IMG/VR virus record: IMGVR_UViG_2880412407_000002
Strand: one strand, 5' to 3'
Origin: a virus
Lineage: Duplodnaviria; Heunggongvirae; Uroviricota; Caudoviricetes
Length of the DNA: 64,000 nt
The position numbers and the translations under genes were made by a program. Positions within the stretch are counted from its first letter, which is position 1, and the number at the start of each line of letters is the position of its first letter. The notes under the pieces were generated by a model. That model ran no database searches, was not told the origin of the DNA, and worked only from the letters and a program-made list of their open reading frames with translations. Below are positions 6,533-40,472 of this stretch, piece by piece.

Positions 6533-6780
6533 AAAGAATAAAAAAATCCCGCAGTGTATGGAGGCTGCGGGAACAGAAAATGAAGATTAACCACAGGGAG
6601 TTTTGTTTTTATTGGCCCGAAAAAACTGTAACGCCCGGGAATGATATCTGCCACGGGGGCGTACAGAAAATGTGAAGAAATTCAGAAATTTTATTCCGTC
6701 ATGACACAGGCACCCTCCGGGGTGCCTGTCGTTTTTGGGGCATAAACAGATTCAGACATCAGACAGGAGAGGGGGACAGA

Positions 6781-25678: not shown

Positions 25679-26449
25679 ATGGAAACTGTATTGCATGCAC
25701 TGAAAGCGATGGGAAAAGCCAATTCTGTTGAACTGGCGGCGCGGCTTGATATCAGCCGTGAAGAAGTTCTTAACGAACTGTGGGAACTCAAAAAAAATGG
25801 CGTTGTTGATAAAACGGGTCACACCTGGTTTCTGGCTGGCGAAGGTGAATCCCGGGTAACCGAAGAGCGGCCAGTAAAATCTGAAGCACAGGATATGCTG
25901 ACCGGGGAGGTCGAACAAAAAGTTACCGCAGACATGATGATTGAGTTTATCGGTCAGGATGGGGCTAAAACGTGTGAGGAACTGGCGGGTAAGTTCGGTG
26001 TCAGTACTCGCAAGGTTGCTTCCACGCTGGCGGTGGTAACCGCAACGGGGCGGCTGGCACGCGTTAATCAGAACGGTAAATTTCGTTACTGCATGCCGGG
26101 CGATAATTTACCAGCAGAGCCGAAAGCCGCGCTGGTAACGGAAAGTGATGGTAAGGCCTTTCCTCAGCCAGCAGGTGCTGCGTTACCAGTCCGGGAAGCC
26201 GCAACACAGGAAGAAATTAAAACAGAAACTGTGGCGGACATTGTGCAGCCGTTGCCATCGTTTACCGAAACGCAAGCAGATGAGCTGATTTTTCCGTCCC
26301 TTCGCAGGGCAAACCTGGCGCTGCGCAGGGCGAAAAGTGATGTTCAGAAGTGGGAGCGAGTCTGCGCCGCGCTGCGGGAGCTGAACAAGCACCGGGATAT
26401 TGTTCGACAGATTACTGATTCTTCCCGCCGTGTTGTATCGGAAAAGTGA
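25679..26449 (+). CDS. Hypothetical protein (DUF1627-like)
   Basis: 256 aa ORF. Confidence 0.45.
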
Positions 26450-26464
26450 TTGCCGGAGGCGCTT

Positions 26465-26878
26465 ATGGCAAAAGTATTTACACAGGAAGAGCGGGAAAAA
26501 ATTAAAGGGCAGGTTGTTGAGCTAGTACGCCGGAGTGGGCGCGAGACGTTACGGCAACTGGAAGCCAAGACAGGTGCGACAAGATATCTGATGAGCGTTC
26601 TTGCCAGAGAGCTGGTTGCCAGTGGCGATGTATACAACTCTGGTTACGGGTTATTCCCATCTGAACAGGCTCGTAAGGACTGGCAAAACGCCCGCAAAAA
26701 ACTATCGAGGGCAAAACTGAAGAAACCGGTTGTGGTTGATCCTGACCTTATCTGGTCATTACCAGACGGAGAAATACGCCGCTATGACAGGCAATTGAAC
26801 ATAATTTGTAGTGAGTGCCGTAACAGTGAAGTGATGCAGCGAGTTTTGATATTTTACACAGGAGTAATGATGGAATAG
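26465..26878 (+). CDS. Hypothetical protein
   Basis: 137 aa from MAKVFTQEEREKIKG. Confidence 0.4.
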   Translation: MAKVFTQEEREKIKGQVVELVRRSGRETLRQLEAKTGATRYLMSVLARELVASGDVYNSGYGLFPSEQARKDWQNARKKLSRAKLKKPVVVDPDLIWSLPDGEIRRYDRQLNIICSECRNSEVMQRVLIFYTGVMME

Positions 26879-27229
26879 TGAAAATAACATGAAACCTTTG
26901 GATTCTGGTGTTTCAGTGGATGGGAAAAGAGCAGATACATAGAAAATGAATAGCAATAATTCACAGTCTGGATGTTGTTTGTATGCTTATAAAATGATCC
27001 TAGTATGCATTGCCGGAGTTGAATCAGCTCCAATGAAGAAACTGAGAGGAGTATTTAGAAGATAGCTAAATGGATGTAATTATTAGTATCTAAAAAATAG
27101 TATTTTTGAAATGGGTCTAAGAACACAACAATGTACAAATGAGAAGTTATCTTTTAATATGTTCAAAGACCCATTAGGATTGATATCAGTTATGTTAGCT
27201 AGATTGATAAAGTGATTACATATTTTCTG

Positions 27230-28003
27230 TTATATGCTGAAATGAATAATGCTATTCCAGAGTGCAGCAGAGAAAGTCTCCTGATGATTGAGCTCTGGAA
27301 ATTGTACAATAGAAAAATTACTGTATTTTTCTGTCAAAATATTTCTCAAAACAGATTCCGCTTTGATGGCTTCAGGATATAAAGATGCGGAGTAATCAAG
27401 GCTAAGATTTCCGTTAAGCAAGCATATACTTTTAGTGTGCTTTGATTCTGATATATCATCTTTAATTATCTTGATGATTCTTTCATTCTGCCATAGAAGT
27501 GATGGTGCAGATATATAATAATAGTTAAAGCATGAATTATTTTTTAAGCAATCAAGCACAAAAATAGCACCTAGCGAGTGCCCACATATACCGATTCTGG
27601 AACTGTTCGGAGCAATAGTACTAACCCATGGCATGATCTGAGTTAGTAATAATTCTCGGAAAGACTGGCTTCCTCCACCAGTAAAGTAGATCCATGCTGG
27701 TTTAGAGTTATCAACAATAGCATTTTCACCATCAGGAGTATAATCGTAAGCACGGCGATGAATGCTAAGGTTATTCCAAGATTCATAACCAAGTGTAACT
27801 AACACTGGTGGATTGGGTAGTGCATCAATAACAGGCAGAATATCAGAAATGTAATTGTTGGCACTATTCCCATCAAGTATATAAAGAGTTGCATTATTTT
27901 TTTTAATGTTTTTTGGAGTAAAAATACATATTTTATATTTGGTGTCATGGTTAATTGAGTTAAATATGCGTGTTTGACAATGAATGTCCATATGTTTAGT
28001 CAT
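27230..28003 (-). CDS. Alpha/beta-hydrolase esterase (enterochelin-esterase-like family)
   Basis: 257 aa; nucleophile elbow GHSLG (ICGHSLGAIF); strongly AT-rich gene and flanks. Confidence 0.65.
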   Translation of the reverse strand: MTKHMDIHCQTRIFNSINHDTKYKICIFTPKNIKKNNATLYILDGNSANNYISDILPVIDALPNPPVLVTLGYESWNNLSIHRRAYDYTPDGENAIVDNSKPAWIYFTGGGSQSFRELLLTQIMPWVSTIAPNSSRIGICGHSLGAIFVLDCLKNNSCFNYYYISAPSLLWQNERIIKIIKDDISESKHTKSICLLNGNLSLDYSASLYPEAIKAESVLRNILTEKYSNFSIVQFPELNHQETFSAALWNSIIHFSI

Positions 28004-28607
28004 GCGTTCTCCCCATGAGCATTAAAGGATGCTTAAGATATGCTATGTCACTGATAAAAAATTTGTTGTGTGTGTTTAGTTATTTTATCTACCTCCATTA
28101 TGATTTAAGACTGATATATGTTATCAGCAAAGGTACATCGTTATTATTTTACCTGTCAATACATTTGATATTGATTATCGTTTACATCGCTTGCTTAGGA
28201 AATTGAAGGCAGGTAACTATCATGTCAATGAACTAACCCACAGTCTAACGTACTTCTTTCCCCAATCACCAACAACCAAATTCCTGTTATCACCACTGGG
28301 ATTTTGGCGCAACTTCATGGTGCAGAGGTAAATAGCATCAAGCAAAATCTCTTTTTCCGTTGTTGTCCTTATGGGACGTCTGTCTTTCTGACCGATTTCA
28401 TATTGGCGAGGTAATGGGAAGTTAAGTAGAATAGCTGCGGGTGCTTGAGGCTATCTGCCTCGGGCATGAACACCAACGGCAGATAGAGAAAAGCCCCAGT
28501 TAACATTACGCGTCCTGCAAGACGCTTAACATTAATCTGAGGCTCAATCTATGAACGGCAAATCTAGGTTAGCCTCTTACGTGCCGAAAGGCAAGGAGAA
28601 GCAGGCT

Positions 28608-28763
28608 ATGAAGCAGCAAAAGGCGATGTTAATCGCCCTGATCGTCATCTGTTTAACCGTCATAGTGACGGCACTGGTAACGAGGAAAGACCTCTGCGAG
28701 GTACGAGTCCGAACCGGCCAGACGGAGGTCGCTGTCTTCACAGCTTACGAACCTGAGGAGTAA
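28608..28763 (+). CDS. hokD: Hok/Gef-family type I toxin (HokD/RelF-like); an in-frame upstream start exists at 28551
   Basis: MKQQKAMLIALIVICLTVIVTALVTRKDLCEVRVRTGQTEVAVFTAYEPEE. Confidence 0.8.
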   Translation: MKQQKAMLIALIVICLTVIVTALVTRKDLCEVRVRTGQTEVAVFTAYEPEE

Positions 28764-28930
28764 GAGACCTGGCGGGGGAGAAATCCCTCGCCACCTCTGA
28801 TGAATCAGGCATCCTCAACGCACCCGCACTTAACCCGCTTCGGCGGGTTTTGTTTTTTCCTGGCATTCTGGTTTACAATTCGCACGCCAGCCTGAACAAC
28901 TGGCACCTGCTGCGCCAGCAGAGACAACCG

Positions 28931-29209: not shown

Positions 29210-29283
29210 TGTGCGGGTATTACTTCGACCTGTTCTGGTACCGGAACTCGGTCTGGTTATCGTTAAGCCAGGCCGTGAATCCA

Positions 29284-30259
29284 TGCGGGTATTTCATGGC
29301 GGCAGGGTGCTGGTGGAGTCTGAACCGAAAAGCATGCGTAATCTGCCGTCCGGGGTCGTTCCTGCCGTTCGCCAGCCGCTGGCGGAAGATAAATCATTAC
29401 TGCCATTTTTCAGCAATGAGCGTGTGATTCGTGCTGCTGGTGGCGCTGGTGCACTGTCTGACTGGTTATTACGTCACGTTAAATCCTGCCAGTGGCCTCA
29501 TGGTGATTATCATCACAGCGAAACTGTCATACATCGTTACGGTACCGGCGCGATGGTGTTGTGCTGGCACTGCGACAACCAGCTGCGCGACCAGACATCC
29601 GAATCACTTGAGCAACTTGCTCAACAAAACCTGTCAGCATGGATGATTGACGTCATCCGCCACGCAATGAATGGCATACAGGAACGGGAATTATCGCTGG
29701 CTGAATTATCCTGGTGGGCAGTCTGCAATCAGGTGGTGGACGCATTACCTGAGGCAGTATCGCGTCGTTCTCTGGGATTACCGGCGGAAAAAATCCGCTC
29801 CGTATACCGTGAAAGCGACATCATACCGGGAGAACAGACCGCCACCAGCATACTGAAGCAGCGCACAAAAATATTGCGCTACCGCCTCACACCCACCAGC
29901 AACAGAACCCACCACAGGAAAAGACGGTGGTCAGCATTGCCGTTGATCCGGAGTCTCCGGAATCCTTCATGAAACGACCTAAACGTCGCCGCTGGGTAAA
30001 TGAGAAATACACACGCTGGGTAAAGACACAGCCGTGTGCGTGTTGTGGTAAGCCAGCGGACGATCCTCATCATCTGATTGGTCATGGTCAGGGTGGAATG
30101 GGAACAAAATCCCACGATATTTTCACGCTACCGCTGTGTCGGGAGCATCACAACGAGCTTCATGCGGATCCGCTGGCGTTCGAAGAAAAGCATGGTTCCC
30201 AGGTTGATTTAATTTTTCGTTTTCTTGATCACGCTTTTGCAACCGGCGTGCTCGGGTAA
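29284..30259 (+). pseudogene. DUF968 (YdfU-like) protein, apparently split into two frames near 29900-29930
   Basis: ORFs 29211..29972 and 29927..30259; second part has CxxC...HH zinc-binding-like motif; may be two genes. Confidence 0.45.
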
Positions 30260-30271
30260 AAGAGGTTACTG

Positions 30272-30643
30272 ATGCGTATAGAGTTTGTTTTGCCTTACCC
30301 GCCGACGGTGAACACCTACTGGCGACGTCGTGGCAGCACATATTTTGTATCAAAAGCCGGTGAGCGTTATCGCCGGGCTGTGGCGCTTATTGTTCGCCAG
30401 CAGCGGCTGAAATTAAGCCTGTCCGGACGGCTGGCAATAAAAATTATTGCAGAACCACCGGATAAGCGCCGCCGTGACCTGGACAACATTCTGAAAGCAC
30501 CGCTGGATGCGCTGACGCATGCGGAAGTGCTCATTGATGACGAGCAGTTTGATGAAATCAATATTGTGCGCGGTCAGCCTGTGCCAGGTGGACGGCTGGG
30601 CGTGAAGATTTACGAAATCAGAGGTGGTAACGATGGCGCGTGA
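30272..30643 (+). CDS. rusA: Holliday junction resolvase RusA
   Basis: [21 protein letters not shown]...[14 protein letters not shown]. Confidence 0.85.
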
Positions 30644-31004
30644 TATCCAGATGGTTCTTGAGCGATGGGGGGCATGGGCAGCAAATAATCATGAAGATGT
30701 AACATGGCCCTCGATAGCTGCTGGTTTTAAAGGATTAATCCCGACTAAAGTGAAATCACGTCCTCAGTGTTCTGATGATGACGCCATGATAATTTGTGGT
30801 TGTATGGCACGATTAAACAAGAATAATCAGTATTTGCACGATTTGTTGGTGGATTATTACGTAGGTGGAATGACATTTATGGCTCTTGCACGTAAGCATA
30901 GATGTTCTGATGGGCTTATTGGTAAAAGGCTTTATAAAGCGGAAGGTATTATTGAAGGAATGCTTATGGCTCTGAATGTCCGGTTAGATATGGATATGCG
31001 GTAG
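30633..31004 (+). CDS. Late-gene antitermination protein Q-like
   Basis: 123 aa; position after rusA and before the late region. Confidence 0.6.
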
Positions 31005-31155
31005 GGATATATAGTGATGAGGGTTATGTTTTCTATGTTTATAATTAACATGTTTATTTTTTGATGGTCATGTATTGTGGAAGGTAGATAAAATGTTGCC
31101 TGGTGAATTGAAAATATTGATAATCAATCTTCATCATTAAATAAAAGGAGTGCTT

Positions 31156-31974
31156 ATGTGGATTGTGTTAGTACTGTCACTGTCAACTCTCAGTTGGCAT
31201 AAGGTAGTGGCTTTTTCATTGTTGACGGTGTCTGTTGTCCTGGCTGTGCTTAATGATATTATTGATTGGTCGGTGTTATTTTTTGTTGCTACAATCGTTT
31301 TTTTTATTATTTTGAAGTTCAACTGGAAATATAACGCCTGGGCTAAATCTATATATGAAGTTGGCATAGTTTTATCAGCCATAGCATTATCTTTCCATCT
31401 ATGGCCAGGGTTTCACAATCCTGTAGTGCTAAATTCTGTTACTGTTGGCCCTCAGAGTACTCCCTATACAATGTATTTTAATTTTGATAAAGCGCTGGTG
31501 CCATTTTTGTTAGTCCTGTGTACATCTTCTTTGTTTAAAAAAGAAGTAAAATCAGAAGTGTCTTTGTGGAAGTGGGGGGCTCTGTCGCTCTCTGTTCCTC
31601 TTATCCTGTTTTTGGCTGTTTTTTTTGGTGGATTAAAGCCAGAGATTCATTTTCCTGAGTGGTTGCCAGAGTTTATATTGGCTAATTTGTTTTTTGTGTC
31701 TCTGGCAGAGGAATCATTATTTAGAGGGTATATTCAATCACGGCTATCAGAAGTAACGTCTCCATTGGTTGCATTAATTGTGGCGGCTTTGTTGTTTGGT
31801 TTTTATCACTATTCAGGTGGTGCTTTACTTGTATTATTTGCCACGTTATCTGGTGTTGTGTATGGATTGTCATGGATGTGGAGTGGGCGTTTGTGGGTTG
31901 CCACCCTTTTCCATTTTGGTTTGAATCTGTGTCACTTGTTATTCTTTACCTATCCATTTTTAAAACATAATTGA
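31156..31974 (+). CDS. CPBP-family (CAAX protease / Abi) intramembrane metalloprotease
   Basis: Multi-pass membrane protein with EExxxR (AEESLFRGY), FxxxH (FGFYHY) and HFGLN motifs; AT-rich. Confidence 0.75.
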   Translation: MWIVLVLSLSTLSWHKVVAFSLLTVSVVLAVLNDIIDWSVLFFVATIVFFIILKFNWKYNAWAKSIYEVGIVLSAIALSFHLWPGFHNPVVLNSVTVGPQSTPYTMYFNFDKALVPFLLVLCTSSLFKKEVKSEVSLWKWGALSLSVPLILFLAVFFGGLKPEIHFPEWLPEFILANLFFVSLAEESLFRGYIQSRLSEVTSPLVALIVAALLFGFYHYSGGALLVLFATLSGVVYGLSWMWSGRLWVATLFHFGLNLCHLLFFTYPFLKHN

Positions 31975-32260
31975 TTTTTTCTATGGTTTTAAATTTATAA
32001 GACTGAAAAATAGCAGGACGTGACATTTGCATGAAAAATATGCACGGCAAAGCATTTACGTACGTAAAAAATCAGGTATGCTGTTAAGAGTGGTTATTTC
32101 GCCGCATAGCTTGACCCCGCCTCTGAGCGGGTTTTTTGTGCCCGCAAAGTAGCGCAGTGCGTTAAATGTGCTGGTAGTTATTAATACAGGTCTTTCAGCT
32201 TGCTGGCTTTTTCGGCAAGAGTTATTGGTGTGTCACGTTAACCGGAAAGGGTAAAAAGAC

Positions 32261-40265: not shown

Positions 40266-40472
40266 AATGTTGCCCCGTATTCAGTGTTGCTGATTTGTAT
40301 TATCTGAAGTTGCTTTTACGCTAATTTGATGCAGATCAATTAATACGATACCTGCGTAATAATTGATTATTTCTCGTGGTTTGATGGCGTACACACATGT
40401 CGTGATAAACCTCATGTAGATGATAATTATTATCATTTTCGTGGGTCCTTTCCGGCGATCCGACAGGTTACG

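Follow-up and report, generated by a model that had tools for sequence, protein, structure and literature searches.

A stretch of 64,000 nt of Caudoviricetes DNA (IMG/VR record IMGVR_UViG_2880412407_000002; the window, hereafter, refers to this whole stretch) carries a gene for a 257-aa predicted alpha/beta-hydrolase, here termed the prophage esterase, located in an AT-rich island between a DUF977 gene and a hok toxin locus. Integrating sequence, profile, structure-prediction and comparative genomics analyses, we conclude that its product is very probably a folded, selected, cytoplasm-resident serine esterase of the lid-less IroE branch of the enterobactin-esterase superfamily; a known enzyme family thereby gains a divergent, relocated member with an unusual carrier, which does not amount to a new kind of system. 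As for its role, we favor, with a probability of about 0.55, that the gene is a moron expressed in the lysogen, whose product would hydrolyze catecholate siderophore esters, either adding to Fes-type iron release or making linear oligomers of 2,3-dihydroxybenzoylserine (DHBS).

Family placement and predicted fold

When the esterase was searched against all PDB chains by phmmer, IroE was the best match (2gzr, E = 2.8e-24, residues 8-253), followed by BES (E = 2e-12), PfeE (E = 8e-10), fungal siderophore esterases and a Shewanella 'IroE-like' hydrolase. Two family alignments were used for comparisons, A1 and A3, the latter being restricted to 28 canonical IroE-type proteins. By hhalign, the esterase aligned with the IroE-only profile over 248 columns (99.87% probability, E = 1e-31), and columns 1-73 of this profile had no counterpart in the prophage protein. 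An AlphaFold2 (AF2) model, obtained with a 32-sequence alignment, displayed a mean predicted local distance difference test (pLDDT) value of 80.4 and a predicted template modeling (pTM) score of 0.86. The 30 best Foldseek matches of this model in the PDB were all siderophore esterases, with template modeling (TM) scores of 0.70-0.82; IroE was the top match (0.79-0.82), PfeE reached 0.81, and the significance of the matches falls by about four orders of magnitude in E-value from the siderophore esterases to generic esterases, with Fes at ~1e-9. The 257-aa protein lacks the N-terminal lid domain of the Fes type.

A first-pass annotation, made by a model from the letters of the sequence and its open reading frames (ORFs), had described a 257-aa gene with a GHSLG nucleophile elbow that resembled the enterochelin-esterase-like family. 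Both statements hold, since the reverse-strand ORF encodes ICGHSLGA (Table 1) and the protein belongs to the enterobactin-esterase superfamily of alpha/beta-hydrolases, specifically to the lid-less IroE/PfeE/BES branch, which also includes fungal EstA/EstB, and not to the Fes/IroD one. Among phage protein families, a full-length match to PHROG 8493 was obtained (E = 6e-184), a family whose function is unannotated.

Active site

Residues were mapped from the esterase to IroE through the phmmer alignment, the numbering of the 2gzr chain differing from that of IroE by a constant offset of 40. The equivalents of D44, R84, S143 and H240 of the prophage esterase are Asp90, Arg130, Ser189 and His287 of IroE, respectively; the four residues occupy invariant or nearly invariant columns of the family alignments, and they are kept in every full-length allele. 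In the AF2 model, S143 follows strand 137-142 and directly precedes helix 144-154, and H240 belongs to the loop that joins strand 229-234 to the last helix, 242-256; both residues thus occupy canonical positions in this model. The RAYDYTP and SAPSL motifs of IroE are also retained. Arg130 of IroE reportedly forms an atypical oxyanion hole in which it is anchored by Asp90, a description credited to Larsen et al. in 2006.

At the canonical position after strand beta7, the esterase has no acidic residue. The first-pass annotation had regarded the lack of a Ser-His-acid triad in a structural model as disqualifying, a rule that is invalid for this esterase family, as the catalytic machinery of IroE is itself an atypical dyad, Ser189/His287, and no triad (PMC10515146, PMC7034887); Fes, for its part, relies on a Ser-His-Glu triad (PMC10515146).

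One position next to the nucleophile distinguishes the window copy. Codon 140 encodes Trp in all other alleles examined (12 IMG/VR copies of the major allele, ECs1077 of strain Sakai, and the 91% and 89% alleles described below), and this Trp is invariant in A3 and conserved in at least 90% of A1; in the window it is a Cys codon. Judging from the sequence, the W140C change may partly impair the window copy, which would represent a lineage-specific partial loss of function.

N-terminus and predicted compartment

The prophage esterase begins where the core of IroE begins, and is devoid of the 45-70 N-terminal residues of IroE, which comprise a hydrophobic anchor and the invariant motif PLGPNIADKGS..YHF. 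No hydrophobic segment was found at its N-terminus, as the maximal Kyte-Doolittle mean over 12 residues was 0.0 within the first 45 aa, and a longer N-terminus is excluded because an in-frame TAA lies six codons 5' of the ATG. In contrast, an N-terminal extension with a hydrophobic stretch (Kyte-Doolittle value of at least 2) is present in 184 of the 245 full-length relatives, including nearly all of the 40 best-scoring ones, and most of the 23 leaderless relatives are either more distant or resemble mis-called starts. The protein thus resembles an IroE-type enzyme whose anchor has been lost, rather than one of the BesA type. Having neither the membrane anchor nor the conserved N-terminal motif, the esterase is predicted to be cytoplasmic, as the absence of an obvious signal peptide had already suggested, and in this it differs from nearly all of its nearest relatives. 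IroE is periplasmic, prefers iron-free substrates and makes a single cut that yields the linear trimer, and Fes is cytoplasmic (PMC7403778).

Comparison with known esterases

IroE, encoded in the iroBCDEN cluster (structures 2gzr and 2gzs), is the best match of the prophage esterase by sequence, profile and structure, and both are lid-less with a similar core length. However, IroE is anchored in the periplasm, whereas the prophage protein is leaderless, predicted to be cytoplasmic and encoded by a solitary prophage gene outside any siderophore cluster. Several hallmarks of IroE proper are absent, namely the anchor, the PLGPNIADKGS..YHF motif, the Glu of the LMEG motif, and linkage to iroB, iroC, iroD, iroN or another siderophore locus.

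BesA/BES of Bacillus (2qm0) shares the lid-less fold (Foldseek TM 0.72-0.74) and the GHSLG elbow, and, like the prophage esterase, has no long N-terminal extension. BesA is cytoplasmic and therefore provides a precedent for a lid-less fold working in this compartment. Nevertheless, it is more distant from the prophage esterase than the anchored IroE-type proteins are, and its context is chromosomal and iron-regulated. PfeE of Pseudomonas aeruginosa (6gi0-6gi5) also has the same fold (TM 0.76-0.81), its sequence match being limited to residues 38-177; unlike the prophage protein, it is the periplasmic ferric-enterobactin esterase of the pfeA uptake locus. Fes and IroD share with the prophage esterase the predicted compartment and the superfamily, and the catalytic domain of Fes is matched by Foldseek (TM ~0.65), but they carry an extra N-terminal lid domain (~385 aa against 257), are much more distant in sequence, and are absent from the phmmer list.

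A different kind of resemblance is offered by the NanS-p sialate O-acetylesterases, which are also esterase cargo of the Shiga toxin (Stx)-encoding and lambdoid prophages of enterohemorrhagic E. coli (EHEC), one of the SASA family being present in the window's own prophage. They constitute a conceptual precedent for a prophage esterase that alters lysogen metabolism, although their fold is unrelated (SASA/PF03629), they are located in the late region beside the lysis genes and are co-transcribed with them, and their substrates are carbohydrates. The 'esterase' mentioned in a preprint on the Pas small RNA (sRNA) was considered as a candidate for the present gene and rejected, as it corresponds to NanS-p.

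Distribution, alleles and selection

The esterase gene was found in 470 of 5,426 complete E. coli genomes (~9%), in 466 of them with at least 80% coverage, and it is almost always single-copy. Carriers include O157:H7, O26, O103, O111, O121 and O145 strains, as well as isolates from pig and fish. In O157:H7 Sakai the gene is ECs1077 of the lambda-like prophage Sp4, annotated as 'hypothetical protein', whose product is identical to the window protein at 256 of 257 positions. The copies are rather homogeneous, 457 of the 470 being at least 99% identical and the remaining 13 being 90-95% identical. Exact matches to the 2-kb stretch of the window were obtained in O121:H19 genomes and in copies disrupted by insertion sequences (IS) from O26:H11 and two animal isolates; furthermore, window positions 6703-48833 are collinear with strain 2014C-4423 at 99.1-99.9%, short of exact identity.

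A DNA search of 50,697 deposited phage genomes matched it in none, and tblastn of the deposited phage genomes retrieved only canonical iroE, in mislabelled bacterial records. In IMG/VR, the same protein was the only one found, at 89-100% identity and in contigs derived from E. coli, and no IroE-like structure was present among the viral structures of BFVD. Relatives of intermediate identity were sought with a word-indexed search and an exhaustive HMMER search of 1.84 billion representatives; in 15 billion proteins there were none between ~83% and ~38% identity, and the donor lineage was not found. Beyond the prophage alleles, the next relatives are anchored IroE-type proteins, and the nearest non-prophage relative that could be placed (P0020) is encoded in a catecholate siderophore cluster, where its neighbors are EntE/B/A-type genes and genes for two TonB-dependent receptors and an importer of the FecCD type; this context lends indirect support to a siderophore substrate. 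The sole 'plasmid' match was in PLSDB, at 30059-30829 of NZ_CP124741.1 (EDL933, 286,775 bp, 99.6%). Because this 287-kb EDL933 'plasmid' carries prophage genes, it looks like a mis-assigned chromosomal contig and not a real plasmid-borne copy.

Three allele groups were distinguished (100%, 91% and 89%). Pairwise ratios of nonsynonymous to synonymous substitution rates (dN/dS) among them were 0.17-0.25, with dS up to 0.32, and the protein has therefore been under purifying selection. DUF977 and hok flank every copy examined, including those in which DUF977 is only 72-92% identical. In two IMG/VR contigs carrying the 91% allele (L019 and L020), the 253 nt upstream of the gene are 98-99% identical to the window, the coding region ~91% and the downstream spacer ~78%, a pattern that would indicate either a recombination breakpoint at the start codon or a stronger constraint on regulation than on the protein.

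The AT-rich island and its candidate regulatory sequences

The first-pass annotation had noticed that the block holding the gene is far more AT-rich than the phage backbone, and the measurements agree with it. In 400-nt windows, the GC fraction is 0.31-0.37 across ~26800-28400 and 0.49-0.57 on either side; over 26880-28360 it averages 0.341, whereas the 2-kb flanks reach 0.513 and 0.528, and the GC fraction at third codon positions (GC3) of the esterase gene is 0.279, against 0.48-0.61 in five neighboring phage genes. The block is indeed found at the proposed coordinates (26880-28560), with a right end that had been set slightly too generously: judged against alleles and phages elsewhere, the limits of the island proper fall at ~26842-26857 and ~28256-28391. 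Similarity to the DUF977/LygF genes of other phages stops at ~26841-26856 of the window, similarity to their hok loci begins at ~28361-28417, and two divergent alleles align continuously over 26400-28256 and resume at 28391. No terminal direct or inverted repeats bounding the island were found; a transposon or a miniature inverted-repeat transposable element (MITE) was considered and rejected, as such repeats are absent.

The placement of the island between replication-region genes and hok was likewise borne out. On the left, the DUF977 gene, which is also annotated as LygF, Ren-like or 'phage exclusion protein', comes after replication-type genes (DUF1627 and a DnaC-like ATPase); on the right lies a hok/mok/sok type I toxin-antitoxin locus, with the Rfam sok family (RF01794) at 28439-28613 (107 bits). 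In an Rfam scan of the island, sok alone reached the threshold and the rest was sub-threshold noise. The coordinates of all these features are collected in Table 1.

Table 1. Positions in the window of the prophage esterase gene, its predicted active-site codons, candidate regulatory sequences and flanking loci.
Feature	Position	Strand	Remarks
Esterase ORF	27230..28003	-	257 aa, intact; ICGHSLGA at residues 139-146; ECs1077 homolog; RefSeq WP_000160651.1 'alpha/beta hydrolase'; PHROG 8493
Asp44 codon, in LDGN	27872..27874	-	Equivalent to IroE Asp90; invariant in A1 and A3
Arg84 codon, in RAYDYTP	27752..27754	-	Equivalent to IroE Arg130; invariant in A1 and A3
Codon 140	27584..27586	-	TGT (Cys) in the window; TGG (Trp) in all other alleles examined
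Ser143 codon, predicted nucleophile of G-H-S-L-G	27575..27577	-	Equivalent to IroE Ser189; invariant in A1
His240 codon, predicted general base	27284..27286	-	Equivalent to IroE His287
Shine-Dalgarno sequence GGAG	28009..28012	-	5 nt before the ATG; same in the divergent allele
Predicted sigma-70 promoter	28097..28124	-	ATAACA, 16-nt spacer, CATAAT; consensus scan, 9/12 matches
Fur-box-like sequence GATATTGATTATCGTTTAC	28167..28185	.	15 of 19 consensus positions matched; 164-182 nt before the start codon
Terminator-like hairpin (27110-27175) and U-run	27092..27175	-	55-120 nt past the esterase stop codon
AT-rich accessory island (proposed moron)	26857..28391	.	Variable DUF977-to-hok slot of a lambdoid/Rac-like prophage
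Left flank, DUF977 gene	26450..26878	+	Pfam PF06163, E = 4e-27
Right flank, hok/mok/sok type I toxin-antitoxin locus	28439..28763	+	hokD annotation; mok-like ORF at 28551-28763

The esterase gene is oriented against the early-right operon of the phage, and candidate signals of its own accompany it. Conservation between alleles is high over the 260 nt that precede the ATG, a stretch that includes the Shine-Dalgarno sequence and the predicted promoter, both hexamers of which are conserved in the 89% allele. Past the stop codon, the terminator-like hairpin (inverted repeat I4) has 16-nt arms that are 88% complementary and an RNA fold of -27.9 kcal/mol, with z = -2.55 relative to shuffled sequences. 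Upstream of the promoter, the Fur-box-like sequence has a score that only 1.4% of sequences simulated for this upstream region with a first-order Markov model attain (P ~0.014); it is one of three sites with at least 15/19 matches in the 64-kb window, and in the divergent, rare allele it scores 14/19. Taken as a hint of iron control, this site is suggestive only.

Between the upstream region of the esterase and hok, a segment of ~135 nt (28256-28391) is not common to the island of the divergent allele. RefSeq places there a truncated pseudogene fragment (~28265-28348), and a forward-strand terminator-like hairpin is found at 28364-28378; the segment is probably a recombination scar at the right edge of the island.

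The variable DUF977-to-hok slot

DUF977 genes were located at 6,670 places in 4,139 genomes, and the esterase occupies ~7% of such slots in E. coli; together with its absence from the deposited phage genomes, this agrees with the earlier statement that an esterase here is not a standard lambdoid function. When related prophages were compared, as had been suggested, DUF977 and hok were found in common and the cargo between them differed. In phage Tritos (L002, 1077-2411), the occupant is a reverse-strand, AT-rich FRG-domain gene matching the PADLOC candidate PDC-S15 (E = 1e-98). Elsewhere the slot, examined among others in L027 (4141-7392), L028, L030 and L031, houses the IteA/IteS anti-phage system, QueH with or without a TehB-family gene, a Dcm methyltransferase with an O-methyltransferase, or runs of small phage ORFs. 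Two uncharacterized genes of ~320 aa occupy it in a further prophage (L030, 4124-6103), and this pair could be an unrecognized two-gene system. The DUF977-to-hok slot is thus a hotspot of variable accessory cargo, conflict genes being frequent among its occupants, and the esterase island, with a gene whose GC3 is 0.28 and with its presence in some prophages and replacement by other cargo in others between common genes, displays the deviant composition and the distribution of a moron.

Proposed role and alternative explanations

In the mechanism that we favor, the family, the fold, the conservation of the catalytic residues, the lack of a leader, the purifying selection and the fixed slot come from the analyses above, and we infer the catalytic activity, the siderophore substrate, the timing of expression, any control by Fur and the benefit to the lysogen. 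The island would be a self-contained moron, in which a single gene, foreign and AT-rich, is accompanied by a ribosome-binding site, a predicted promoter and a predicted terminator of its own. Because the gene is transcribed against the early-right operon, it would be expressed in the lysogen and probably not during lytic growth. Ser143 would attack the ester carbonyl, His240 would serve as the general base, and Arg84 and Asp44 would stand in for Arg130 and Asp90 of IroE, the canonical acid being absent and Asn197 standing at the Glu position. Acting in the cytoplasm, without the anchor that keeps IroE in the periplasm, the enzyme would have as its likeliest substrates the serine-ester (trilactone) bonds of catecholate siderophores, among which enterobactin is the first to consider in E. 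coli. Either more iron would be released, in addition to that freed by Fes, or apo-enterobactin would be converted into linear DHBS oligomers. Linear enterobactin products are made by both IroE and Fes; MacAB exports them, and they protect Salmonella from peroxide (PMC7403778).

A number of observations weigh against this reading. Identity to IroE is only 26-30%, and about half of the residues that are invariant among IroE homologs are altered in the esterase; for this reason the specificity of IroE is not transferable to it, and its substrate specificity may differ. The changes include the GYQTxLPFD loop beside Arg84, which reads GYESWNNLS, the HG after the catalytic His, which is HQ, and the nearly invariant Glu of LMEG, which is replaced by Asn197 (Ser197 in the 89% allele); in the window copy, moreover, Cys140 directly precedes G-H-S. 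Curated hidden Markov model (HMM) libraries are nearly silent, which accounts for the RefSeq name being only 'alpha/beta hydrolase': the Pfam family PF00756 ('Putative esterase') reaches 15.2 bits, below its gathering threshold of 22 (E = 0.018, residues 81-161 only), and a search of NCBIfam matched no families. Assignment by profiles, proposed earlier as a check, therefore works with the IroE-only profile and leaves the esterase unplaced with Pfam alone. A literature search found WP_000160651 and ECs1077 mentioned nowhere. Regarding context, the esterase is a solitary gene with no siderophore-related neighbors in every copy examined, and E. coli already possesses a cytoplasmic enterobactin esterase, Fes. 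As for regulation, promoter-like sequences in the region are no more numerous than in shuffled sequences, AT-rich DNA readily yields Fur-box-like matches, and the Fur-like site is ~43 nt upstream of the predicted -35 hexamer, off the promoter. Broken copies also exist, with insertions of IS1203, IS3 and IS481 in O26:H11, pig and fish isolates, and one frameshift (L025).

The broken copies would fit a passenger of little or no present function, acquired horizontally, probably silenced as AT-rich DNA, hitch-hiking in a successful prophage module, slowly decaying and, in the window, already impaired by W140C. The high identity of 457 of the 470 copies fits a recent spread by linkage, the window allele alone has a Cys at an otherwise invariant Trp140, and in some strains frameshifts affect genes of the prophage around it. 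We nevertheless consider this explanation improbable, since the dN/dS values, at the dS levels reached, denote long-term purifying selection; in addition, no full-length allele has lost any of the four catalytic-site residues, nearly all carrier genomes keep at least 80% of the gene, and the upstream region is conserved, being in the 91% allele more so (98%) than the coding region. Alternatively, the gene could serve in conflict between phage and host or among phages (defense, superinfection exclusion or counter-defense), in which an esterase with the IroE fold would cleave a non-siderophore ester, or would hydrolyze siderophores with an indirect outcome, namely that faster iron release leads Fur to repress TonB-dependent receptors exploited by colicins and by competing phages. 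The company kept by the gene speaks for such a role, as other occupants of the slot include the PDC-S15 FRG gene, IteA/IteS, QueH and the Dcm methyltransferase, and the adjoining DUF977 gene is annotated as Ren-like or 'phage exclusion protein' in some records; the motifs that line the pocket also diverge from those of IroE. Position alone is weak evidence, though, because the slot also houses ordinary small phage ORFs, and the protein itself gives no sign of a defense-type role. The esterase matched no family of PADLOC-DB v2, even at E <= 1, its close structural relatives are all siderophore esterases, and we know of no single-gene defense effector with an IroE-type fold; altogether, a conflict role appears unlikely, yet worth keeping in view.

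Far less credible is an exported virulence factor, whether an effector of the type III secretion system or an enzyme that escapes on phage lysis and would act on extracellular siderophores of the host or of competitors. Its appeal comes from the enrichment of the gene in EHEC and Shiga toxin-producing E. coli (STEC) serogroups (O157, O26, O103, O111, O121 and O145), from an AT-richness shared with many prophage-borne effectors, and from the presence of pchA and sodC in Sakai Sp4. Nonetheless, the first core beta-strand of the AF2 model starts at residue 8, which leaves no room for a disordered secretion signal of 20-30 residues, and the gene is in the early region and not in the effector loci beyond the tail-fiber genes; on these two grounds the type III effector idea was rejected as unlikely. 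The orientation of the gene opposes lytic transcription and thus uncouples it from lysis, and the gene is also carried by pig, fish and other non-STEC isolates.

A bolder form of the siderophore-ester reading is that the phage moves a periplasmic-type IroE esterase into the cytoplasm of the lysogen and thereby rewires the enterobactin economy of the host. We regard this as a speculative and rather improbable extension, and keep it open because anti-phage systems occupy the same slot in other prophages. In one version, newly made apo-enterobactin would be intercepted and turned into linear DHBS oligomers, changing the siderophore species that are exported, with possible effects on MacAB-dependent protection from oxidative stress, on evasion of siderocalin, and on competitors, to which cyclic enterobactin would be denied. 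In the other, faster release of iron in the cytoplasm would cause Fur to shut down the TonB-dependent receptors used by rival phages and colicins, which would amount to siderophore-based lysogenic conversion or superinfection exclusion.

E. coli outside the lineages that carry iroA has generally been described as having no IroE homolog (PMC7403778, for example). In contrast, a leaderless IroE-like prophage gene is present in ~9% of complete E. coli genomes, including Sakai and most major non-O157 STEC serogroups. If enterobactin is hydrolyzed by its product in the cytoplasm, a prophage would thereby alter the way in which important pathogens acquire iron, or their catechol pool, and the enzyme could affect the activation of, or the resistance to, siderophore-drug conjugates and siderophore microcins. 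A literature search for phage-encoded siderophore esterases found none, and the present one, if the favored reading is true, would be the first that we found described on a phage.

Other features of the prophage

The DUF968 gene (29211-30259, forward strand) is split into overlapping ORFs at 29211-29972 and 29927-30259, and in a near-identical genome it is annotated as frameshifted, as is a replication-initiator-like gene; because of these frameshifts the prophage is probably defective, though the esterase ORF is intact. A second AT-rich block (~30900-32000) directly follows the Q antiterminator gene. It contains, at 31150-31974 on the forward strand, a gene for a 274-aa intramembrane protease of the CPBP/Rce1-like type (PF02517, E = 1e-19), which corresponds to the 'CAAX protease' ECs1085 of Sakai Sp4; it gave no PADLOC matches, and a 14/19 Fur-box-like sequence lies just upstream, at 31113. 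The best Fur-box match of the whole window, GATAATTATTATCATTTTC (17/19, 40422-40440), is situated between a YlcI/YnfO-like gene and the gene for the terminase small subunit, as mapped onto an annotated genome. Just downstream of hok, at 28772-28853 on the forward strand, there is a sub-threshold match to the Rfam family of the Hfq-binding sRNA isrK (27 bits against a gathering threshold of 50, E = 0.003), which ends at a strong terminator-like hairpin (28832-28849).

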